11,308 nucleotides of DNA, from positions 1 through 11,308 of the forward strand of contig JBHLRQ010000098.1 in NCBI GenBank assembly GCA_048882385.1, in the 5' to 3' direction. Shown here piece after piece: positions 1-11,308 of the stretch. The notes below the pieces were generated by a model. The model made no database searches. It saw only the letters and a program-made list of their open reading frames with translations, and was not told where the DNA came from. The stretch is from Candidatus Thorarchaeota archaeon. Its GTDB lineage: Archaea; Asgardarchaeota; Thorarchaeia; Thorarchaeales; Thorarchaeaceae. Made by a program: the position numbers and the translations under genes. Numbering within the stretch: position 1 is the first letter of the stretch; every line of letters starts with the position of its first letter.

Positions 1-711
1 CTCTATTTTCTTCTCCCTATTGTAATGCGCCATCTCTCCACCGACTTTTTTCGTTGTGCCACTAAGAATGGCTAACCATTCACTCACACCTAGAAAAACT
101 GCAGCTAGGATTCCGCTGAAATCGCCAGCTATGAACCATCCAGATATACCCAAGATAAGACATGTTATCACTGTCCAAGCGCCCCCAATGAAGAAGAACA
201 TCTTACGTTTAGGAGGTTCTGCAAGCAGAAAACTCACATAGTCAATCTTCAGAGCTGGTTCACTATACATTCCTTTACACATAGCCTCTATCTTGATACC
301 GAACAGCGTGCCAGCTACTAATCGACCAAATGGGTAGAAGAAGAAAGTTGCTCCCATCACACAGCCAAGCCTTCTCAAGAAGAGCCACCAGTCATAACTG
401 GTCCAAACTAGAATTGTAGAGAAATCCAGTGGGGCTGATAGCAGTCTAAGATACCAATATGTCATTAAAAGACCAGGAAGGAAAAAGACACCAATGCAGG
501 GACCAAGAGGATATTCACGTCCTCGTAGTTCCTTGAAAAGGAGGTTTCTAATTCTAGCAGCAATTACGACCTCTTCCTGATCCGGATTTGGAGAGCGTTT
601 TATCTGTCTTACAATTTTCCAGAACTCTCTCCTCATTTCTTTGTCCACAGCCTTTGGATTCTTACTCACTATCTCCTCAATTTTCATCAAAGACTGCTTT
701 CGGTCAGACAT
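1..711 (-). CDS. Multi-pass membrane hypothetical protein, 3' end beyond the left edge (>=237 aa); not in the ORF track
   Basis: Manual translation: open frame from ATG at 711 (MSDRKQSLMKIEEIVSKNPKAVDKEMRREFWKIVRQIKR...) to the edge (...GGEMAHYNREKKIE), with several hydrophobic segments and an in-frame TAG upstream of the ATG. Confidence 0.88.
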   Translation of the reverse strand, partial: MSDRKQSLMKIEEIVSKNPKAVDKEMRREFWKIVRQIKRSPNPDQEEVVIAARIRNLLFKELRGREYPLGPCIGVFFLPGLLMTYWYLRLLSAPLDFSTILVWTSYDWWLFLRRLGCVMGATFFFYPFGRLVAGTLFGIKIEAMCKGMYSEPALKIDYVSFLLAEPPKRKMFFFIGGAWTVITCLILGISGWFIAGDFSGILAAVFLGVSEWLAILSGTTKKVGGEMAHYNREKKIE

Positions 712-787
712 CTGAATCAACAGTATGTTTGATTGACCTTGCTAATGAAACCTTACAACAGGGTAATTGAACCTGAATCGAGAAAAC

Positions 788-810
788 CAACAATCTCGCC
801 CGGTCCACAA
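788..810 (+). repeat. tRNA-3'-end-like repeat, copy 1 (CAACAATCTCGCCCGGTCCACAA)
   Basis: 18/23 to consensus TTCGAATCTCGCCCGGTCCACCA (18/19 over 792-810); intergenic, between divergent genes. Confidence 0.9.
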
Positions 811-888
811 CTTGGTTTCATATTGAAAAACGATTGCGTGTACAAGCTCTCTTTTATTATACGAGAATAGGGCGCACTCTGTGATGTT

Positions 889-1962
889 ATGGTTCAACCT
901 CGACGAAATTTGTTACAAATCGTTCTTTTACTTGCAATTCTGACAGTAGGCATCATAGTGTCAGCTGTTTATTTCTTACAACAAACCCAGATACTAGATT
1001 CACCGCAGACACCTGATCCACCTCAGATACAAAATCCGCAACAACTACCAAAAACTCCAGAAGATGTCGAACTTAGCCTCATAGGAGAGATTGATACTGG
1101 GGGTCATGCATTGAGTGTGCATGTGAATGGCGATCTCGCTTTCGTGACTGATTATGGAGAGAGCACTGCTCATGGTTTAATCATAGTCAATGTCAGCAAT
1201 CCATCTCAACCAGAGATACTGGGCGAATATCATGACGGAGGATTTCCGTATGCAATAGAGTCGGTAGGTGAAATAGTGTATATTGCAGACGAGGTTGAAG
1301 GACTCAGAGTAATCGATATTTCTGATCCTACTCATCCGCTCGAGATTGAAGGATTTGGTGGTAGCGGGATGGCGTTTGATTTGGAAATTGTTGGAGATTT
1401 CTTGTTCCTTGCAGATTACGAGTGGGGGATGGTTGTATTAGACATTAGCATTCCGAGTAACCCAGAATATGTTGCTAGTTTTGGTCCAGACTGTTTTCAT
1501 TTTGAGATTGAAGAGAATATTGCATACATAGCAGGTGCAGGACGTCTAAGAACAGTCAACGTCAGCGACCCACATAATCCAACGCTTCTGGGTCAAACCA
1601 TCGCAAGTAGTATCACTCTATGGGATCCGTCAGTTTCAAATGGGACAGTCTATCTTGCGAACCATAGTGGAGATGATGGTGAACTTCTTATTTATGATGC
1701 AAGAAATCCATCTAACATCCAAAAAATAGGCGAATTTGATTCTGCTGGTACGTTCCAGTCCTTCTTCGTTGATCATTCACTGCTTTATGCTGTTGACTTT
1801 GTGAGCGGGTTGTATGTTCTAGATGTGACCAATGCCACATTACCTTTAGAGATTGAGAGATTCTCAGATGGACAACCATGGGATGTAACTATCTGCGATG
1901 GTCTAGTATATCTAGTTGGATCTGAGGGCTTGCAAATTCTAGAAGCGACATACATCTACTAA
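889..1962 (+). CDS. Membrane-anchored LVIVD-repeat beta-propeller protein
   Basis: N-terminal hydrophobic anchor, Pro/Gln-rich linker, then ~42-aa repeats (GLIIVNVSNPSQP, GLRVIDISDPTHP, GMVVLDISIPSNP, LRTVNVSDPHNP, LLIYDARNPSN, GLYVLDVTNATLP). Confidence 0.9.
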   Translation: MVQPRRNLLQIVLLLAILTVGIIVSAVYFLQQTQILDSPQTPDPPQIQNPQQLPKTPEDVELSLIGEIDTGGHALSVHVNGDLAFVTDYGESTAHGLIIVNVSNPSQPEILGEYHDGGFPYAIESVGEIVYIADEVEGLRVIDISDPTHPLEIEGFGGSGMAFDLEIVGDFLFLADYEWGMVVLDISIPSNPEYVASFGPDCFHFEIEENIAYIAGAGRLRTVNVSDPHNPTLLGQTIASSITLWDPSVSNGTVYLANHSGDDGELLIYDARNPSNIQKIGEFDSAGTFQSFFVDHSLLYAVDFVSGLYVLDVTNATLPLEIERFSDGQPWDVTICDGLVYLVGSEGLQILEATYIY

Positions 1963-1985
1963 CCTAATACCACAGTGGTGGAGAT

Positions 1986-2008
1986 TTCAAATCTCGCCCG
2001 GTCCACCA
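1986..2008 (+). repeat. tRNA-3'-end-like repeat, copy 2 (TTCAAATCTCGCCCGGTCCACCA)
   Basis: 22/23 to consensus; ends in ACCA followed by CTTTT; 23 nt after the stop of 889..1962. Confidence 0.92.
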
Positions 2009-2115
2009 CTTTTAATGGGTGTATTGAAATTCCTTCTGTGGTAACAAGTAATCTACTGTTTTCTGAAATAGTTCTCCCAATCAATGAGAATTCATTGCTT
2101 GAAAACAAAAATGTT

Positions 2116-2132
2116 ATACCAAAAATTGGTAT
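2116..2132. promoter_or_regulatory. Inverted repeat ATACCAA-AAA-TTGGTAT, putative operator
   Basis: Perfect 7-bp arms, ending 22 nt upstream of the probable ATG (2155) of the wHTH gene. Confidence 0.4.
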
Positions 2133-2154
2133 CAAATCATTAGTGAATCGGAAA

Positions 2155-2814
2155 ATGACGGAAGGCACAACATCTGAAGGCAACAAAACACAGGATGTAC
2201 TGCATTTTACCCCTGAATTGGTGAAGATTCTAGATTCACCCCAAGCGATAAGACTGCTTGAAGATCCGGATTATTACATTATCGTTGAGATTCTACGAAA
2301 GAGACCTATGACTATTCGTGAAATTGAAGACGCGTACAAGTTGAGAGCTTCTGACCACGAAACGGTTGAGCCAAAATCCTACAACACCATCTACAGGTAT
2401 ATCAAAGCTCTGGAAAAAGAAGGTCTTGTGATACCTGGGGGGAAACGAGTTGAATTTGGAAAGACAGCTGCTGAAACTCTCTTCTCGAGAACGGCAAAAC
2501 TATTTCATTTTGGATGTCCTCCAGACATGACCGAAGAAGGCAGAGAATTTGTCGATCGAGTTTTGGGAGGGTTAATGCTTTTGTATGGTGGATCCAAAGT
2601 AACCGAGTCATGTCTACGTGAAACAATTAATGAAATCAGTGTAACAATGAAAGACGAGATTACGAAACTTGCACAGGTGGATCACAAAGTGAAATTGGAT
2701 GAAATCTTGGCAGGTGAATGGGGAATAATGATCAAGACTCTGGATTATATCGCCTTTTTGAGCATCATTCTGAATCATCCCGAACTAGTGAAGAAACTCA
2801 AAGATTGTTTCTAG
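2155..2814 (+). CDS. Winged helix-turn-helix (ArsR-like) transcriptional regulator; probable start ATG 2155 (219 aa)
   Basis: IVEILRKRPMTIREI...KSYNTIYRYIKALEKEGLV...AETLFSRTAK wHTH pattern. The 60 codons from GTG 1975 span repeat copy 2 and AT-rich promoter-like DNA, so they are likely spurious. Confidence 0.85.
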   Translation: MTEGTTSEGNKTQDVLHFTPELVKILDSPQAIRLLEDPDYYIIVEILRKRPMTIREIEDAYKLRASDHETVEPKSYNTIYRYIKALEKEGLVIPGGKRVEFGKTAAETLFSRTAKLFHFGCPPDMTEEGREFVDRVLGGLMLLYGGSKVTESCLRETINEISVTMKDEITKLAQVDHKVKLDEILAGEWGIMIKTLDYIAFLSIILNHPELVKKLKDCF

Positions 2815-3238
2815 TTGGACAGACATTCATTGGACATTCCATTACTGCTTCAAGATACCGTGAATTAGAACACCTTCCAATCATAATCAGTGTATGGTTT
2901 TTATTTTTCGTTGAGAGATATATTTATATCATTATTCGATAATATATTATCATGTTGTGATAATAATGGCTTTCCAGAAATTAAAACAAAGTGGTTTGGC
3001 CCATAGGAAAATTGTACAAGACGAACCTTGTGAAGATGGAATTGCTAGGAGTAAAACTAGTATGGACAAACAACATGTGGTAGCATACAGACATGATGTC
3101 TCACGAATTCCACGTCATAACAAATGGATGACTGGAAGATCAGTGGCAACTCTTCATCGCTAGAAAGCCAGGCACTTCATTTTTTCTCTCACACATCAAT
3201 CTGAATCAAACATTAGACAACCACTATTCTATACTTTA

Positions 3239-3261
3239 CTCGAATCTCGCTCGACCGATCA
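3239..3261 (+). repeat. tRNA-3'-end-like repeat, copy 3, most degenerate (CTCGAATCTCGCTCGACCGATCA)
   Basis: 17/23 ungapped to consensus; followed by CT as in copies 1, 2 and 5; intergenic. Confidence 0.7.
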
Positions 3262-3327
3262 CTACTCTTCTATGATATACTGAAAATTTAAACTGGAGTT
3301 GTGTTGTCTAAGATTGTTGGAAGGATA

Positions 3328-3765
3328 ATGGATTCGGTACATCCAAGCGGCATGTCATCAATCAGAAATGCCAGATTATTAGGAATTCTATTTCTAGTCT
3401 ATGCTATTCTAATGCCTCTCATCATTCTCTTAATACCAGAATCCGAACTTCCTGCTGGTGCTGATTTGCCTGAAGCCATTTCATGGTTAATGATTATTTT
3501 GATGCCCATCGAGATTCTACTCATCTATCTGTCGTATCATCATTTTAGAAAAAGGGCTGAGTTGGGTAATATCATGGGACCAGCTGTTCTCATGTACACT
3601 TTCGCTACTATACCATCTATCTATGCATTCGTAATTGGATTCATAGGATCAGAGTTGCGATCCATTGCGATTCTACTTGGCTTGGTCTTTTCACTCGTGG
3701 GTTTTTGGCTAACATCGATGTATTTGTCGAAACTTTGGGAAAACACTACATCAGACAATCATTAG
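3328..3765 (+). CDS. Four-TM membrane hypothetical protein (start ATG 3328; track uses GTG 3301)
   Basis: Four hydrophobic segments; TTTAAA TATA-like box at 3287-3292. Confidence 0.8.
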   Translation: MDSVHPSGMSSIRNARLLGILFLVYAILMPLIILLIPESELPAGADLPEAISWLMIILMPIEILLIYLSYHHFRKRAELGNIMGPAVLMYTFATIPSIYAFVIGFIGSELRSIAILLGLVFSLVGFWLTSMYLSKLWENTTSDNH

Positions 3766-3778
3766 GTTGTTCATATCG

Positions 3779-3801
3779 TTCGAATCTCGCCCGGTCTACA
3801 A
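3779..3801 (+). repeat. tRNA-3'-end-like repeat, copy 4 (TTCGAATCTCGCCCGGTCTACAA)
   Basis: 21/23 to consensus; preceded by G, giving the canonical GTTCGAATC; 13 nt after the stop at 3765. Confidence 0.92.
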
Positions 3802-3891
3802 GTTTCTCTTTTACAAGGATTTGATGGTTCAAGTATTCAAGCATCTCATTTGTTTTATAGGAACGATATCTAATTTATGTGATGCTGGATT

Positions 3892-4389
3892 ATGCTAATC
3901 GTTACTATTGCAAGCATCCTCGGATGGGCTTTACTAAGAAGATTTGGATGGAAATGGTCACTAGCAGCCTTTCTTATTATGACTTCAGTAGTTTCATTAT
4001 TAGTCATAAATGATGTCCAAACTGGAGGAGTTATACGTGATGATATCGGTCCAGAAACAGATCTTTTGTACTCCACTGTATATACCAGAAGTACTGCATT
4101 ATTACCCTTTATGATACAGAAACACCATAATTGGACCTCGCAGACATTCATTTACTATGTTACATTTCTTACTCATGATGGAGATATTGTTTCTCAGACA
4201 GGTCCAGCTCCAGACCAGAGCGAGTTCATGCATTTGGCACTGTTCACAATATCAGTGTCCATCTGTTTCCAAGGATTTGTAGTAGCTGTACTGGTAACTC
4301 TTGGAGCTGAATTCATTATATGGTGGCGAAAGCCTGATAGAATGGAAATACTACGAGGTTATTCTACCAAAAATGATGCCACTGAATAG
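3892..4389 (+). CDS. Membrane hypothetical protein
   Basis: 165-aa ORF with hydrophobic N- and C-terminal segments around a soluble loop. Confidence 0.7.
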   Translation: MLIVTIASILGWALLRRFGWKWSLAAFLIMTSVVSLLVINDVQTGGVIRDDIGPETDLLYSTVYTRSTALLPFMIQKHHNWTSQTFIYYVTFLTHDGDIVSQTGPAPDQSEFMHLALFTISVSICFQGFVVAVLVTLGAEFIIWWRKPDRMEILRGYSTKNDATE

Positions 4390-4467
4390 ACATTCATACT
4401 ATGGCATCATGTGAGTGGCATTGCGTTAACCCCTACCCTATAATGCAGTGGGAAAGGGCTGAAGAAC

Positions 4468-5154
4468 ATGAAGCTTCTTGTGTTCAATGCAAGTCCTAGG
4501 AAATCCAATGGCACGACAGATGTGTTGTTGGAAGCCTTCATTGAGGGAGCAAGGTCGTCAGGAGCTGCTGTTGAGAAACATCACATTGTGGACCTGAAAA
4601 TAAATGGATGCCGTGGATGCTTCAACTGTTGGTGGGTAACTCCTGGCAAGTGCGTACAAAAAGATGACATGGAAAAACTCCTTCCTAGCATTACAGAGGC
4701 CGATGTAATGCTCCTTGGTACACCAATCTATGGGCGTAACGTGACCCATTACTTGCAGAAACTGCTTGAAAGGACCTTTGTGTTCTCTCTTCCTGAGATG
4801 GTGAATCGTGAGGGAGAAACACAGCATCCAGGTAGAATAAGGAGGTTTCCAAGATTGGTTCTGGCTGCGACATGTGGATTTCCTGATACGAGTAACTTCG
4901 ATATAGTGAGAGCCCTCTATCCGATGGCACTACCCATCTTTCTTCCAGCTGCGCAGCTATTGTTCTACGAAGAGGGAAAGAAGCAGCTTTCAGGTTTTCT
5001 TCAGGCTGTAAGGCTTGCTGGAAAGAAGATAGCTGTGGGTGAAGATCTTACTGAAGAAACGAAGGACCAGTTGATAGTGGAATTCTCCGACGAGATGAAG
5101 AAACAGTTAGTGGAAATGCACAACAAATACAGCGAATCACGAAGCCAAAAGTGA
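4468..5154 (+). CDS. Flavodoxin-fold iron-sulfur flavoprotein / NADPH-dependent FMN reductase family
   Basis: FMN-binding loop NASPRKSNGTT, Cys motif CRGCFNCWWVTPGKC (CX2CX2CX7C), DDM and GTPIY motifs. Confidence 0.92.
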   Translation: MKLLVFNASPRKSNGTTDVLLEAFIEGARSSGAAVEKHHIVDLKINGCRGCFNCWWVTPGKCVQKDDMEKLLPSITEADVMLLGTPIYGRNVTHYLQKLLERTFVFSLPEMVNREGETQHPGRIRRFPRLVLAATCGFPDTSNFDIVRALYPMALPIFLPAAQLLFYEEGKKQLSGFLQAVRLAGKKIAVGEDLTEETKDQLIVEFSDEMKKQLVEMHNKYSESRSQK

Positions 5155-5162
5155 TTGAGATC

Positions 5163-5185
5163 TTCGAATCGCGCCTTGTCTACCA
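5163..5185 (+). repeat. tRNA-3'-end-like repeat, copy 5 (TTCGAATCGCGCCTTGTCTACCA)
   Basis: 19/23 to consensus; followed by CTT; 8 nt after the stop at 5154. Confidence 0.82.
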
Positions 5186-5306
5186 CTTCTTATGATTGGT
5201 GGCCCAGCTATGGTTGAAGTTCGAGGTTTGCTATACTATATCTATCTTGTAATAGCTCTTTTCGGTATACTAATCATATTCACTTGACGATGTTTGGAGG
5301 AATGAT

Positions 5307-5780
5307 TCAATCAAAGACGAGCTCAAAGAGCTCAACATCTAGACCCCAGAGATGCCTTCTCATATACGCGCACTTTTCGAAGCCATTCTTCTCATAGAGT
5401 GAGATTGCTTCTGTTAGAAATGGAACTGTGTTCAACCATACTTTTACTGCATTGTGTTTTCTTGCTGTTTCAATTACGACGTCAACCAAAGCCTGACCAA
5501 TGCCATGTCGTCTATGTTCAGGTGTAACTGCCATATGAGTCAGATAACATGTACCGTGTTTGAAAATACATCCCACAACTCCAACTACTTCTTTGGAGGT
5601 TTCAGCTACAAAGTATGTATCTGTTTGTAACCAGGTCACAGTTTCATCAGGAGATGGCGTTCTAGATTCTAACAATTCCTTAGGAAATCTATCAGAATAA
5701 TCGCTCCAGACTCTGGAGTAAAGACTCGAAATACTTGATGCGTCGCTCTCCAATGCAGGACGAATTGTGAATGCAGACAA
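5307..5780 (-). CDS. GNAT family N-acetyltransferase
   Basis: Motif A MAVTPEHRRHGIGQALV and motif B AISLYEKNGF. Confidence 0.93.
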   Translation of the reverse strand: MSAFTIRPALESDASSISSLYSRVWSDYSDRFPKELLESRTPSPDETVTWLQTDTYFVAETSKEVVGVVGCIFKHGTCYLTHMAVTPEHRRHGIGQALVDVVIETARKHNAVKVWLNTVPFLTEAISLYEKNGFEKCAYMRRHLWGLDVELFELVFD

Positions 5781-5986
5781 TGACTACACCAAATTCATAC
5801 TCGGGGTGGTCCGTAAATGTGTTATGATTAAATGAGATCGGACTTTAGTCAATCAATATTCTAATGACTAGATATCGGTAACACCATCATCTAAGAGAGT
5901 TTAGTGCTAAGAATGACAAACGTTGGAGACCTATCCACCATGGAATGCTTGCTTCTGAGTATATGATGTTGGGTAGAGAGTGATTA

Positions 5987-6514
5987 CTAATCGTCAATCC
6001 GTTCTCCCAAGTGATAGTAGTTGAAGTCGCCACCAATGGACCATATTATAGGTTGTACTCTTCTCAAGTCAAGTTTACCTTCTGAGAGCACTTCAGAGTC
6101 AGCATATGATTTTACTACTCTTCCTATGATACCCTCGTTGGGATCATAATCGAGTATCTCTGTGACTTCACACTCCATATTCAATGAGCACTCTTGAATC
6201 ATTGGAGCTGTGTCCAACTCACCAAAGAATGTTTCAAAGATCGTGGATTTGTCATAATCTCGGCCGGACTTACTTCCGCAAAGATTCGTTTTCTCAAGCA
6301 TTGACTCAGATGGTATGTTTACACTGAATGTCATGTTTTGGTGGATACCTATCCTAGTGTATCGTTTCTTGTATAGGCTGAAGAACACATGTCTACCAAA
6401 ATTGAATGGAGATATGTATCCTATTACCAAAAAGTTGGGTTTTCCATCTACTAGTGCACCTACAAGCGCCACAGGTAGAGGATTGAGTACATTTCCCTTG
6501 ACCACTTCTTTCAT
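5987..6514 (-). CDS. Flavin reductase family protein (DIM6/NTAB, flavoredoxin-like)
   Basis: PLPVALVG, FSVNIP, CGSKSGRDYDK and APMIQECSLNMECEV motifs; GGTGA SD upstream. Confidence 0.92.
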   Translation of the reverse strand: MKEVVKGNVLNPLPVALVGALVDGKPNFLVIGYISPFNFGRHVFFSLYKKRYTRIGIHQNMTFSVNIPSESMLEKTNLCGSKSGRDYDKSTIFETFFGELDTAPMIQECSLNMECEVTEILDYDPNEGIIGRVVKSYADSEVLSEGKLDLRRVQPIIWSIGGDFNYYHLGERIDD

Positions 6515-6539
6515 AGGTGGCTTTCACCATTCTTCATTA

Positions 6540-7112
6540 TTAGTTCAAACTTATTCCATAAGCCTCAGAGAATGCTATCTCGTTAAGATCACGGGTTGAC
6601 CTAGGATTAGGAACTTCATCAGGAATTCCTAGTGTCACCAATGCGACAATATCAGCAGTATCAGGGATTTGGAGAGCCTGTTTGACTGCAGCTATGTTCT
6701 GACTATTCCTAGAGTCTAGCATGGCCACCCAGCAGGATCCATATCCAAGAGCGGTTGCTGCTAAGACAACATGTTCTGTCGCAATCATTGTGTCTTGAAC
6801 ATGCCACATGGAGGGATTACCAGGGCAGCATGATGCTGCTTTGTTTGCTAACGCAATGATAACAGCTTTCGCACCTGCAATGAACTTCTGTCTACCTGCA
6901 ACAAGTGAGAGGAGTTCTATTGTTTCGGGATCCTTAACAATGACAAAACGCCATGGCTGGGTGTTGTTTGTAGATGGTGATAGTCGTGCGGCTTCCACCA
7001 TCTGAGTGAGGTGTTCATCAGGAATCTCAATGTCCTTGTATTTTCGAATGCTCCTTCTTTTTGTCACAACATCGAAGAAGCTCTCAGATTGGGTTTCATT
7101 CAAATCAATCAC
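6540..7112 (-). CDS. Nitroreductase family protein (start may be TTG 7103)
   Basis: KRRSIRKY, AARLSPSTNNTQPWRFVIV and LAATALGYGSCWV motifs; likely co-transcribed with the flavin reductase (25-nt gap). Confidence 0.94.
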   Translation of the reverse strand: MIDLNETQSESFFDVVTKRRSIRKYKDIEIPDEHLTQMVEAARLSPSTNNTQPWRFVIVKDPETIELLSLVAGRQKFIAGAKAVIIALANKAASCCPGNPSMWHVQDTMIATEHVVLAATALGYGSCWVAMLDSRNSQNIAAVKQALQIPDTADIVALVTLGIPDEVPNPRSTRDLNEIAFSEAYGISLN

Positions 7113-7287: not shown

Positions 7288-7977
7288 GTGGAACAGCTTC
7301 ATGATGAGCCAACATCAGAATCTGAAGTCGCCTTCCGGAAATTTGTGAGGAAGATGATGATGATTGGAGGAATTATGGCTATAGGTTTGGTATCACTACC
7401 AATTTTGATATACAATATGCAATATTCAGCCCCTTCAGACACATTGCTCATGATCGTTACGCCATTGATAGTCATCGGAAGTATTGGTTTCATCGTTCTT
7501 GTATACTACGGGGATGGAAGCTCCAAGATGTTCCATAGTCTAGATATTCTCAAACAACTCTCACCTCCTGAACCATTCATTGAGGATAGATTAGCAGTCC
7601 TGAATAAGAGCCCAGTATACGGGATTGCTCAATGGGCGTCAAACGTACTCTTGTTTGTGGCATTTCACGAAGTCGAGAGAACGTTTAATCAGAATGCAAG
7701 AGTACCCAAGGTGATTTGGACCTGGGAATATAAACACAAGATTGGACGTGTCAAAGTAGCTATACGGGAAGATGAAAAGGTCACTATTGCAGTTGAACCT
7801 GGAACATACTATACAGGGCAGGCAATTGTGTATTCACTTCTTGTACAAGAAAATGTAATGATTAAGTATCAACGTAGATTCAATACACAACAACTGAACG
7901 AGATTGTAGACCATCTTGCAAACAAAATTGCATCATATGGTTCTGACTTGTCTTCACTAGATGATGAGTACAATTAA
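7288..7977 (+). CDS. Hypothetical protein with two N-terminal TM helices
   Basis: 229-aa ORF; two hydrophobic segments followed by a soluble domain. Confidence 0.8.
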   Translation: MEQLHDEPTSESEVAFRKFVRKMMMIGGIMAIGLVSLPILIYNMQYSAPSDTLLMIVTPLIVIGSIGFIVLVYYGDGSSKMFHSLDILKQLSPPEPFIEDRLAVLNKSPVYGIAQWASNVLLFVAFHEVERTFNQNARVPKVIWTWEYKHKIGRVKVAIREDEKVTIAVEPGTYYTGQAIVYSLLVQENVMIKYQRRFNTQQLNEIVDHLANKIASYGSDLSSLDDEYN

Positions 7978-8352: not shown

Positions 8353-8979
8353 CTAATCAAGTAATGCCTTAATGCGTCGAACTCCATCAATCGCATCAGC
8401 ACCATAATCATCGGCTCCCAATTCCTTTGCCAATTCCATATTTAGTGGAGCACCTCCAACAATAATCTTCACTTTTTCACGAAGTCCAGCTTGTTTGAGG
8501 GCATCATTAACTGTTGAGATTTCTTTCATTGTCATCGTCAATAGAGCGCTGAGAGCTACAACTTTGGCTCCGGAGTCTTTCACAGCTTTTACTACTTCAT
8601 CCGCAGGAGTATCTACTCCAAGGTCAATCACCTCAAATCCTGCAGACAAAAGCATAGAGAGAAGGATGTTCTTACCGATATCATGGTTATCACCCTTCAC
8701 AGTGGCTGCAACTATCGGTGTTTTGATTCCTGATTCATCAGTCTTCAGATGAGGTTTGAGAACCTCAAATGCCGCCTTCATAGTTTCTCCAGCTAGAACA
8801 AGTTCAGTGAGAAAGTATTCATCGGTCTCATATCTCCGCCCCACTTCATCCATCCCAGAGGTAAGTGCTTTGAGTAGGTCTTGGGGATCAACACCAGCAT
8901 CGATTTTGTTTTGGACAACGCTCGCGATATTTTCGTCATCCAACTCAACAATCATGTTTGTGACATCATCAAGCTCCAA
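8353..8979 (-). CDS. Corrinoid (cobalamin-binding) protein, MtaC/MtbC/MttC-like
   Basis: Cap domain (GMDEVGRRYETDEYFLTELVLAGE), DxHxxG motif GDNHDIGKNI, LSALLT and IVGGAP; AAGGAG SD. Confidence 0.94.
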   Translation of the reverse strand: MELDDVTNMIVELDDENIASVVQNKIDAGVDPQDLLKALTSGMDEVGRRYETDEYFLTELVLAGETMKAAFEVLKPHLKTDESGIKTPIVAATVKGDNHDIGKNILLSMLLSAGFEVIDLGVDTPADEVVKAVKDSGAKVVALSALLTMTMKEISTVNDALKQAGLREKVKIIVGGAPLNMELAKELGADDYGADAIDGVRRIKALLD

Positions 8980-9075
8980 TGATTATACGCTCCTTGTCTG
9001 TTTACCATGTATTGATAAACGGGGTAATATTCCTTGTTTTGTGCCTATCAATCGAAGGTAGGAGTATCACTAGAT

Positions 9076-9711
9076 ATGAATGATGATATCCAGAAGACAC
9101 TTCTTGATGTAATTGAGGAAGCGGGAAATGATCCACGATTGGCTGAAACGTGGTATGACCTTGGAGGTGCATTATACGACCGCAGTCAGTTCATCGAGGC
9201 AGAGTTTGCATATAGGGAGGCATTAAACTTAGACCAGACTCTAGTTGGAGCTTGGCGAGATCTGGGAGCTGCTCTATTTATTCAGAACCGATATGATGAG
9301 GCTGAGGACGCATTGAAGGGAGCTCTAGAATACAACAATGAAGACTCTGATGTTTGGTACAATCTTGGATGTGTCTACAATGTACTGGATAGATTCAATG
9401 ACGCCGCTTTGGCTTTCAGAAGAGCGTCCGAGTTGAATCCTGAAGACACTGATACATGGTGTAATCTGGGTGTGGTTTTGTCAAATCTCGGAGAGTATGA
9501 GGAAGCTGAGCGTGCTCTTAAGAGGGCAATAGAAATCAGGCCAGATCACTTTGTAGGTTGGTTGAATCTAATTAGTCATTATAAGACACAGGGAAAGACT
9601 AAGGAGGCGACCCAGGCATACAAATCAGCTTTGGAGTTCATCCCTGATTTTGATTATTATAAGGAAGATCTACAAGATGCCATAGATGAGGCGCAAGAAC
9701 AGGATACATAG
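9076..9711 (+). CDS. Tetratricopeptide repeat protein (probable start ATG 9076)
   Basis: About five 34-aa repeats (WYDLG, WRDLG, WYNLG, WCNLG, WLNL); AGGAG upstream of 9076. Confidence 0.92.
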   Translation: MNDDIQKTLLDVIEEAGNDPRLAETWYDLGGALYDRSQFIEAEFAYREALNLDQTLVGAWRDLGAALFIQNRYDEAEDALKGALEYNNEDSDVWYNLGCVYNVLDRFNDAALAFRRASELNPEDTDTWCNLGVVLSNLGEYEEAERALKRAIEIRPDHFVGWLNLISHYKTQGKTKEATQAYKSALEFIPDFDYYKEDLQDAIDEAQEQDT

Positions 9712-9726
9712 GTAGGGGCTCATCTC

Positions 9727-10287
9727 ATGTCTAGATTAGAAACAGAGGTCCAAAAAATCACTCTGAAACGATTTGAAAAGGAGGGATTGATACTCGATAT
9801 AGGAGGCGGGGGTGAAGGTCTAGTATCCAGGATTGAAAGGGAGCGAGTCTGTGCAGTTGATATTCGAATGAGTGAGATTCGAGAAGCTCAGATTCATGAT
9901 GCTCCAGCGAATTGGCTCGTCGGCGATGGTAGAAATCTGTCTTTCAAGAGTGGTTCTTTTGATATTGTCACACTTTGGTTTTCACTAGGTTACATGAAAG
10001 ATTGGACGACAAAAAGGGAGGTATTGGAAGAAGCGAAGAGGGTTTTGAAGAAACAAGGAATTGTATCTATTATGGCCAGTAAGATACCAGGAAAGGTCAA
10101 CCAGTTTGTTTTCTGGGCATTATTCACACTCCCAGACGGGACACAGTCGCAGACTGGATATGGAGTAAGTGGAAATCAGGGACAGACCCAAGAGCGAGTT
10201 CTGGACTTAGTTGACCAACTTGATTTCAAAGTGTTGAATTTGGGGGACCATGGAGAGTGGTTCAGTATCACAGCCGCTCGCTCTTGA
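9727..10287 (+). CDS. Class I SAM-dependent methyltransferase
   Basis: Motif I ILDIGGGGEG, AVD, GDGRNLSFKSGSFDIV and RVLKKQG. Confidence 0.9.
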   Translation: MSRLETEVQKITLKRFEKEGLILDIGGGGEGLVSRIERERVCAVDIRMSEIREAQIHDAPANWLVGDGRNLSFKSGSFDIVTLWFSLGYMKDWTTKREVLEEAKRVLKKQGIVSIMASKIPGKVNQFVFWALFTLPDGTQSQTGYGVSGNQGQTQERVLDLVDQLDFKVLNLGDHGEWFSITAARS

Positions 10288-10359: not shown

Positions 10360-10878
10360 ATGAGCCTTGCAGTATGGTGGAGACGCGGTAGCAAACCCGG
10401 ACTTATCATGATGTTCTTAGGAATCGCAGGTTTTGTTCAGATTCCTATTATTTGGCATGCACAGGTCTATGTGACGGTCTTGAGTGCGGAGCTACAACTC
10501 TTGGTGTCTATTGGAGTCATGGTCGTTCTTGGAGGTTCATATGTACTGATGGCTGAAGCAATGTATCGATGGGCGTTTATTGTGTCGAGAAGAAAGACTC
10601 GTAGACGTCAGAGAGCTCAAGCAAACTGGATCAGCAGACTCTCCTCATTTGCCCGTTCATCTACTGACATGCCAGCATTTGTTGGAGTGGGGCTCTTGAC
10701 ATGTATTTTCCTGTTGTTCTATTTCGTCCCATTTGGTATTGCAGATGCAGGAAGCCTTCCATCATGGATAGCCACACTTGCATTTCTAGATCCTCTCTTC
10801 ATTTACATTCTCGGTGTGAATGCTGCTGCAATTGCTACAGCATTTGTAGCCAGCTACATGAACTACAAAATCAAGTAA
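10360..10878 (+). CDS. Four-TM membrane hypothetical protein
   Basis: Four hydrophobic segments with a basic loop (RRKTRRRQR); AGGTGA SD. Confidence 0.82.
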   Translation: MSLAVWWRRGSKPGLIMMFLGIAGFVQIPIIWHAQVYVTVLSAELQLLVSIGVMVVLGGSYVLMAEAMYRWAFIVSRRKTRRRQRAQANWISRLSSFARSSTDMPAFVGVGLLTCIFLLFYFVPFGIADAGSLPSWIATLAFLDPLFIYILGVNAAAIATAFVASYMNYKIK

Positions 10879-11258: not shown

Positions 11259-11308
11259 GCCGCGGTAGATCAGCCAGGGAGATCGCACGGCTGAAGACCG
11301 TGTTGTCG
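11259..11308 (+). tRNA. tRNA-Phe(GAA), truncated by the window edge
   Basis: Acceptor GCCGCGG, TA, D stem GATC/GATC, anticodon stem CACGG/CCGTG with loop CTGAAGA (GAA at 11293-11295), variable region TTGTC; no intron in the visible part. Confidence 0.95.

Follow-up and report, generated by a model that had tools for sequence, protein, structure and literature searches.

Gene-sized intervals between tRNA-Ala 3'-end fragments form arrays in a Thorarchaeota genome and across its genus

Contig JBHLRQ010000098.1 of a Candidatus Thorarchaeota archaeon carries five copies of a 23-nt motif that belongs to the 3' end of a tRNA-Ala gene, and these copies divide a run of unrelated genes into units of one or two genes each. 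The whole contig, 11,308 bp long, is what we call the window. It belongs to a metagenome-assembled genome (MAG) of 3.70 Mb in 256 contigs, with 42.7% G+C, a completeness of 95.3% and a contamination of 4.94%. Throughout, G000 denotes this MAG, other G-numbers denote genomes, C contigs (the window being C98), L fetched loci and F families of cassette proteins; open reading frames (ORFs) were called mechanically and promoters were judged by eye. The copies begin at positions 788, 1986, 3239, 3779 and 5163, all on the forward strand, and depart from the 23-mer by 5, 1, 6, 2 and 4 mismatches respectively, with 1198, 1253, 540 and 1384 nt between consecutive starts. All of these coordinates, match counts and spacings had been given in an original prediction made from the letters of the window, and all were exact on recount. 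A weight matrix of 33 nt, for which 86 copies at loci outside the window served as training set, independently recovers the same five sites (scores in Table 1) and nothing else, whether among them or to the right of position 5185; the best other site on either strand of the window scores 1.0. The reversed genome used as a control contains 0 sites scoring 12 or more in 7.4 Mb, and 0.015 sites per window are expected at a score of 6 or more. By simple matching, the window has two copies at three mismatches or fewer, against 0 in each of 200 dinucleotide shuffles.

The tRNA origin that the original prediction gave to the motif is borne out by the genome itself. The 23-mer is the exact 3' end, from T-loop to CCA, of an intact tRNA-Ala(GGC) gene at C110:2139-2330 on the reverse strand, while the isoacceptors tRNA-Ala(CGC) on C20 and tRNA-Ala(UGC) on C2 differ here by 1 and 2 nt. 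As read by eye, introns interrupt the tRNA-Ala(GGC) gene at three places, namely the D-loop, the anticodon loop and the junction of the T-loop with the 5' strand of the T-stem, and the gene was missed by ARAGORN, even with the intron option, and by the Rfam tRNA model; relatives possess alleles with one or two of these introns. Orphan Ala-type fragments are not scattered through the genome in both orientations. A matrix scan found 13, clustered as had been anticipated on three contigs: five on C98, seven on C110 and one on C20. The seven on C110 form a second array, with one ORF in each interval, and its products include a DUF169 protein, a bPH-domain protein, an Old-Yellow-Enzyme-like oxidoreductase and an amidohydrolase; at C110:5881 about 68 nt of identity is shared, including the T-arm intron.

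Similar fragments of other tRNA genes also occur in this genome. The 3' end of the window overlaps the start of C125 by 77 nt, and across this join the sequence runs through a tRNA-Phe gene into a Phe-type array with 3' fragments at positions 681 and 3388 and ORFs between them (C125:1-3410). Orphan 3' fragments of tRNA-Leu occur on C187, C134 and C66, and of tRNA-Tyr on C1. Orphan tRNA 3' fragments were also seen on C94 and C164; the non-Ala fragments on C187, C94, C164, C134, C66 and C1:125502-130596 are spaced 0.5-3 kb apart, and those on C187 and C94 are inverted relative to the intact tRNA gene.

The contents of the window are collected in Table 1. All five repeats are non-coding, as predicted, once the winged helix-turn-helix (wHTH) gene is taken to start at 2155, a start that agrees with the equivalent methionine of its homologue in G004:C20 and that leaves repeat 2 outside the gene. 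Three of the four window genes that lie upstream of a repeat end 9-24 nt before it; the wHTH gene stops 425 nt before the next repeat, and the 68-aa ORF that follows it 76 nt before. A/T-rich, TATA-like boxes can be picked out by eye 5' of the window genes. No repeat separates the F15 and F0 genes of cassette 4. Gene orientation switches beyond the outer repeats, as had been noted from the sequence, with the genes at 1-720 and 5307-5780 both on the reverse strand. The G+C content of the window cassettes, 0.38-0.42, is near the genome's 0.427. DNA folding of the five repeat sites gave z-scores of -1.5 to +0.4, Rfam has no match at the repeats, and neither ARAGORN nor Rfam detects a complete tRNA in the window.

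Table 1. Features of the 11,308-bp window, with positions counted from its first nucleotide
Feature	Position	Strand	Details
Membrane protein gene of the left flank	1-720	-	No Pfam match; within the variable island of metagenome relative L066
Repeat 1, decayed tRNA-Ala 3'-end fragment	788-810	+	18/23; matrix 21.4
Cassette 1, LVIVD-repeat protein gene (889-1962)	811-1985	+	PF08309, E 6e-32
Repeat 2	1986-2008	+	22/23; matrix 41.5; TTCAAAT T-loop like that of tRNA-Ala(CGC)
Cassette 2, wHTH gene (2155-2814) and unannotated 68-aa ORF (2957-3163)	2009-3238	+	Weak HTH_5 and Cdc6_C matches
Repeat 3, decayed	3239-3261	+	17/23; matrix 22.9
Cassette 3, small membrane protein gene (3301-3765), family F2	3262-3778	+	No Pfam match
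Repeat 4	3779-3801	+	21/23; matrix 34.4
Cassette 4, membrane protein gene (3892-4389, F15) and FMN-reductase-like flavoprotein gene (4468-5154, F0)	3802-5162	+	Flavoprotein PF03358, E 8e-14
Repeat 5	5163-5185	+	19/23; matrix 26.9
Variable block with GNAT acetyltransferase gene (5307-5780)	5186-5983	-	PF00583; repeat on left side, none on right side
Flavin reductase gene (5987-6514) and nitroreductase gene (6540-7112)	5984-7112	-	Two-gene repeat-bounded cassette in G020:C58
229-aa ORF (F17)	7288-7977	+	Repeat-bounded cassette in G016:C124
tRNA-Phe(GAA), 5' part	11259-11308	+	Read by eye; continues on contig C125

Further right in the window, the segments 8353-8979 (reverse strand) and 9034-10287 (forward strand) hold a 208-aa ORF, a 225-aa ORF with TPR-like repeats recognised by eye, and a 186-aa ORF. 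The last of these and the ORF that follows it (10360-10878) are syntenic with G016:C124 as far as the tRNA-Phe gene.

Arrays of this kind are found throughout the genus. At three mismatches or fewer the motif is present in 28 of 28 genus genomes, with 3-18 copies in each, and read backwards as a control it gave 0; in many of these genomes the copies stand in runs on one contig. We also surveyed a sample of the phylum with a stricter pattern that requires the exact acceptor strand, whose counts are not comparable with those at three mismatches or fewer. With it, 143 genomes outside the genus have 0-4 copies each, nearly always on separate contigs, while G000 has 6 and seven other sampled genus genomes have 1-8, the 8 being in G020. 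As far as the tRNA-Ala pattern was surveyed, the expansion is particular to this genus. Many of the arrays lie on short contigs or at contig ends.

The periodicity of the arrays is that of single genes. Our interval statistics cover 91 same-strand intervals at 30 loci, which were picked for holding repeats or homologues and are not a random sample, and the kin genomes among them are not independent. The spacing has quartiles of 619, 970 and 1470 bp and ranges from 61 to 3883 bp (n=91); counting ORFs of at least 70 aa, 63 intervals hold one, 17 hold two, six hold three or four, and five hold none. These ORFs lie on the repeat strand in 69 cases and on the other strand in 50 (119 in total). A single locus can contain up to 10 fragments. 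After the CCA, most of 90 copies have a pyrimidine-rich or T-rich trailer, and the 5' strand of the T-stem is partly kept in about a quarter to a third of copies. Blocks of identity with the tRNA gene run to its 3' end from one of two starting points, the T-loop (23 nt) or the anticodon loop (about 43 nt, at L055:1188 and 5508). Tyrosine integrases, as Williams reportedly set out in 2002, usually cross over at one or other of these two sublocations. In the T-stem, fragments also tend to share the variant of the resident tRNA gene: CCCAG in 5 of 5 fragments at L055, CCCAC in 3 of 9 in G010 and CACGC in 2 of 5 in G005.

At several loci the array begins directly downstream of an intact tRNA-Ala(GGC) gene and on the same strand (G004:C15, G005:C31, G010:C201, G012:C38, G013:C12, L055, L063/L070, L075 and L076), which is the classical layout to be expected when units integrate one after another at the 3' part of a tRNA gene. 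We considered whether an intron in the T-arm shields a tRNA gene from downstream integration; the idea was dropped, since G012, G013 and L076 combine such an intron with a directly downstream array. The cargo, judged from a Pfam scan of about 30 array proteins, consists of enzymes, membrane proteins and proteins of unknown function, and no integrase, replication or capsid gene was found among those proteins. One locus, G011:C146 (L030), contains at 2357-4077 an exact 849-bp tandem duplication comprising the 3' half of tRNA-Ala(UGC) and an opposite-strand ORF of 159 aa.

Comparison with relatives reveals that gene content between the repeats is not fully syntenic. Every window cassette has homologues in other species of the genus, where its neighbours differ and where repeats often bound it. 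The LVIVD cassette of G020:C50 matches window positions 792-2008, from one repeat to the next, at 76% identity and is followed directly by the small-membrane-protein cassette; the 1253-bp wHTH unit, that is, cassette plus repeat, is missing exactly between repeats. A homologue of the wHTH gene stands between two repeats in G004:C20. Likewise, G010:C201 aligns from repeat to repeat with window positions 3260-3812 at 83% identity, and F2 homologues occur in repeat-bounded intervals of 8 loci, always co-oriented with the repeat. The flavoprotein gene comes right after a repeat in G016 and G009, where window positions 3802-4418 are absent, and in G006 the F15 and F0 genes occur in reverse order.

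The order of cassettes differs too. At L048 an oxidoreductase gene (F1) and a repeat precede the membrane protein-flavoprotein pair (F15-F0) and a further repeat; at L054 the flavoprotein gene (F0) comes first, followed by a repeat, the oxidoreductase gene (F1) and a repeat; and in G010 the sequence is oxidoreductase, repeat, amidohydrolase, repeat, flavoprotein. The proteins compared in these reordered arrays are orthologues, 84-89% identical. Among the 16 families present in at least two intervals, 14 keep a constant orientation relative to the repeat. Reordering with constant orientation is the expected product of excision and re-entry at direct attachment (att) sites, and could not come about by deletions from a single ancestral order. 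Window genes beyond the right end of the five-repeat array also behave as cassettes elsewhere: the flavin reductase-nitroreductase pair is repeat-bounded in G020:C58 (L035, in the order repeat, F9<, F16<, repeat), and at L048 the flavin-reductase gene comes directly after a repeat. We also looked for cassettes shared between arrays at different tRNA-Ala genes, and found no support: the NosD-like proteins of F4 are distant paralogues without DNA similarity.

In interpreting these arrays, we consider it probable, though by no means assured, that the repeats are relics of attachment sites, made of the last 22-23 nt of tRNA-Ala, which mark a flexible island of one Thorarchaeota genus and which are the relics or substrates of serial site-specific recombination by a recombinase that acts in trans or is of an unrecognised kind. 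A more specific version, which we consider less likely than not, is that the arrays represent an independently evolved, integron-like form of gene capture, in which single-gene circles would use the last 22-23 nt of tRNA-Ala (elsewhere of tRNA-Phe, -Leu or -Tyr) as their site, the recombinase would act in trans from unbinned elements or belong to an unrecognised class, and long arrays would be reshuffled. Under the mechanism we propose, small circular DNAs would carry one or two genes with their own promoter, together with a copy of the tRNA 3' end and a T-rich trailer. Site-specific recombination would join such a circle either to the tRNA gene or to any fragment that the array already contains, and would add one cassette and one fragment each time; the newest unit would be the one adjoining the tRNA gene. 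Excision followed by re-entry at another fragment would reorder cassettes without inverting them. The recombinase would not be encoded in the array; it would most likely be a tyrosine integrase that an unbinned mobile element provides in trans, or else an enzyme of unrecognised kind. Because mobile elements are often missing from MAGs, a helper in trans seems the simplest idea. The circular intermediate, the class of enzyme and the movement of single cassettes, as opposed to blocks, are what we infer from the arrays. The claim that cassettes were stacked by repeated integration at a tRNA-derived site stands as regards the tRNA origin of that site, and is retained as a conjecture as regards integration one cassette at a time.

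A number of observations weigh against this explanation. An intact tRNA gene had been expected to the left of the window, but the window is the whole contig, and the tRNA-Ala(GGC) gene lies on C110, where it points away from the array beside it. The same divergent layout of tRNA gene and array found at G000:C110 occurs in G007, G024, G015, L062 and L085. In addition, C110:918-981 (forward strand) carries the promoter region and first 23 nt of tRNA-Ala(GGC), inverted relative to the intact gene. The divergent layouts and this inverted 5' copy cannot be derived from simple integration. Orphan 5' parts of tRNA-Ala(GGC) are also seen in G011:C125, G005:C31, G008:C151 and G016:C38, and the 5' part of the gene is thus repeated in some genomes, as is the 3' part.

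Nor do all differences between relatives respect the repeats. Gains, losses and reorderings with breakpoints at the repeats were found as predicted, but at least three insertions or deletions have a repeat on one side or on neither. The GNAT block (5186-5983) is absent from L048, a relative of 88-92% identity, and has a repeat on its left only; the same is true of the segment with the second membrane-protein gene (3802-4418) that G016 and G009 lack; and L066 joins window positions 1-769 to 4418-5138, with the 3.65 kb of 770-4417 missing and no repeat at the joint.

A further objection is the want of a recombinase. The original prediction had suggested looking for a tyrosine recombinase nearby or in trans, and none was found in the MAG or the array loci. 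The MAG has no match to Phage_integrase (PF00589), SSV-type integrase, Resolvase, Cas1, IS110 transposase or Y1 transposase, and a profile built from 12 genus integrases reached at best E 0.085 against six-frame ORFs of the genome and E 0.7 against the array loci. Tyrosine recombinases (PF00589) are present in only 8 of 28 genus genomes, and among the matches listed no PF00589 gene shares a contig with Ala-type repeats. The 23-mer and its 19-mer core had 0 matches in the viral contigs of the collection. Scanning metagenomes with the 23-mer produced 30 loci, many of which hold arrays; neither blastp nor the profile detected an integrase in any of them. Altogether, 0 of about 75 array loci contain an integrase fragment or other mobile-element hallmark.

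Several candidates were pursued and set aside. A 485-aa ORF in four genomes is always antisense, its 3' end overlapping a repeat in the manner of an SSV-type attP within int, and proved to be an amidohydrolase (PF07969, E 1e-47), that is, cargo. Ten conserved flanking genes encode a helicase, a PUA protein, an ABC transporter, ZPR1, an enolase-family enzyme, a leucine-rich repeat (LRR) protein and four proteins without a Pfam match, and there is no recombinase among them. When ORFs from genus integrase loci were compared with the genome by tblastn, only neighbouring genes were recovered. A looser 15-base pattern hit at least 120 loci in viral contigs, and the scoring ones among the matches listed are complete viral tRNA genes with intact T-arms, unrelated to the arrays. 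As to recombinases elsewhere in the genus, the integrase of G018:C202 adjoins the 3' end of another tRNA, like a classical element; G020:C116 (L014/L022), a contig of 2.7 kb, has three tyrosine-recombinase genes in a row; and G020 leads the genus in both recombinase matches (7) and tRNA-Ala repeats (18). The MAG's one TnpB-like ORF, at G000:C94:9246-10922 (Cas12f1-like_TNB, E 3e-14), is on a contig that also has a tRNA and inverted orphan fragments.

Other explanations account for some of these features. The arrays could be the remains of multi-kb elements that brought their own integrases, inserted serially at tRNA-Ala and then lost their integrase and replication modules by deletion, leaving only cargo between att relics in cassettes that no longer move. 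Integrase-bearing elements do re-use one tRNA site in tandem in both archaea and bacteria, as described in PMC6563490 and in the tycheposon preprint (bioRxiv 10.1101/2020.12.28.424599). Some repeats have decayed, to 17-18 of 23 matches in the window; some fragments have identity blocks of 43-68 nt, which are typical of full-size elements; a few genus genomes do have integrases, one of them adjoining a tRNA gene (G018:C202); and several insertions or deletions are not bounded by repeats. Against such erosion, the roughly 75 array loci yielded no trace of an integrase or mobile-element hallmark, the spacing is gene-sized (a median of 970 bp and one ORF in 63 of 91 intervals), and the same repeat-bounded cassettes recur in different orders with constant orientation, which deletion alone cannot produce. 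We therefore think this history unlikely, though it is the alternative that we take most seriously. It is also conceivable that no dedicated recombinase is at work, the fragments having arisen a few times by integration and now serving as 23-nt homologies at which general recombination and repair delete, duplicate and exchange blocks, also after uptake of DNA from relatives. In favour of this, the MAG and 20 of 28 genus genomes have no detectable site-specific recombinase, constant orientation is expected between direct repeats, the breakpoints without repeats betray other recombination acting in the island, the 849-bp duplication in G011:C146 is exact and includes a tRNA 3' half, and exchange within the lineage would fit the G+C content of the window cassettes. 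However, a homology of 23 nt, often mismatched, is a poor substrate for homologous recombination, and the process leaves unexplained the fresh fragment beside each new cassette, the exact start of identity blocks at the T-loop or anticodon loop, and the match of fragments to the variant of the resident tRNA. These considerations make general recombination, to our minds, rather improbable as the main cause.

The repeats might instead owe their distribution to function and not to mobility, as a tRNA-derived terminator or processing signal with a T-rich trailer, selected between independently transcribed genes. The pyrimidine-rich tract that follows the CCA in most of 90 copies would suit this role, as would the short distance, 9-24 nt, between three of four upstream window genes and the next repeat. 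Yet the copies comprise just the 3' strand of the T-arm and acceptor stem, so that no tRNA-like fold can form (z-scores for DNA folding of the five sites, -1.5 to +0.4); the copies decay freely; 50 of 119 interval ORFs lie on the opposite strand; and the expansion is limited to islands next to tRNA genes. A cis-acting signal is accordingly very improbable in our view, and it is site-specific recombination at att relics that we continue to prefer.

The island is best classed with the integration islands at tRNA sites, as a further form of them that functions in the manner of an integron, and not as a member of the integron family. Among systems whose repeats invite comparison, casposons use a Cas1 integrase (casposase) and have terminal inverted repeats and a target duplication of 14-15 bp. 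The arrays are unlike them: the MAG has no Cas1, the repeats measure 22-45 nt, and by eye no purine-rich mirror of the trailer precedes the next repeat. The cis-mobilizable elements (CIMEs) of streptococcal integrative and conjugative elements (ICEs), and 'hitcher' elements, have att sites at both ends but no recombination genes, and presumably rely on the integrase of a helper. CIME-like elements, though, are decayed derivatives of ICEs or islands of several kb and do not form long one-gene arrays, and no helper with the att site of the Thorarchaeota arrays was found in viral contigs.

Integrated elements at archaeal tRNA genes, with SSV-type or pNOB8-type integrases and including the integrated mobile genetic elements (iMGEs) of Thermococcales and Thaumarchaeota, are described in PMC9897764 and PMC6563490 as 2.6-98 kb in size, integrase-bearing by definition and few per site. 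They resemble the arrays in having direct repeats that equal the 3' part of a tRNA and in tandem re-use of the site; their intact gene at one end has a counterpart at the array loci directly downstream of a tRNA-Ala(GGC) gene, though not in the window or at the divergent loci, and the same sources mention that inversions can part a fragment from its tRNA gene. The arrays differ from them in that a locus may hold as many as 10 fragments, spaced about 1 kb apart, and in that no integrase was found within the arrays.

With integrons the likeness is functional, and to that extent the analogy drawn in the original prediction holds: the cassettes are mostly of a single gene, a short recombination site lies between them, content and order vary between relatives, and the cargo is accessory. 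It does not extend to the machinery. No IntI was found by the PF00589 scan of the MAG or by the genus-integrase profile applied to its own genome and the array loci; the site is a tRNA 3' end, made up of one strand (3') of T-arm and acceptor stem, in which no attC-like imperfect palindrome or fold was found; ORFs lie on both strands (69 same, 50 opposite) and appear, by eye, to have promoters of their own in place of a common one, unlike the co-oriented, mostly promoterless cassettes of an integron; and the array is anchored at a tRNA gene, unlike an integron with its attI and Pc. Integrons themselves have been reported in archaeal MAGs, with an enrichment in Asgard archaea (Ghaly et al. 2022, PMC9668308), and the term tRNA occurs 0 times in that article.

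The closest described case that we found appears to be the tycheposon islands of Prochlorococcus (Hackl et al., bioRxiv 10.1101/2020.12.28.424599). These adjoin specific tRNA genes, and partial tRNAs separate their elements and litter the island; newcomers push older elements outward, the cargo serves accessory metabolism and the hosts are mostly without classical mobile elements. Tycheposons encode a tyrosine (rarely serine) recombinase of their own, in most cases along with a replication module, and are several kb or more in length, whereas the Thorarchaeota arrays have a recombinase in 0 of about 75 loci, consist of one-gene units of about 1 kb and reside in an Asgard archaeon. Of tycheposon hallmarks, neither a recombinase nor any primase, helicase or polymerase was seen in the annotated cargo, tycheposon proteins themselves not having served as queries. 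Gene-sized tRNA-fragment arrays in Thorarchaeota or other archaea were not described in the full-text literature searched, although the supplements on the Asgard mobilome (PMC8813620, PMC13247210) may hold relevant loci.

The accessory genomes of Asgard archaea are large and fluid, and the manner in which their genes are gained and shuffled bears on models of eukaryote origin. That tRNA genes are landing sites for multi-kb elements which bring their own integrase is known; what is seen here is the genus-wide occurrence at tRNA sites of arrays of integrase-free, one-gene units of about 1 kb, whose content and order differ between species. If these units do move individually, they would constitute a second, independent way to integron-like cassette arrays, a minimal site of 22-23 nt would suffice in an archaeon, and there would be a recombinase worth finding. 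Even on a conservative reading, the arrays are a clear and testable hot spot of gene flux in Asgard genomes, and they explain assembly breaks at these loci in these organisms.

A few further tRNA-like features of the genome may be recorded. ARAGORN reported 99-nt tRNA-like genes with a four-base anticodon call (atat) at C188:1420-1518 and C229:490-588, and a tRNA-SeC at C4:5427-5517.

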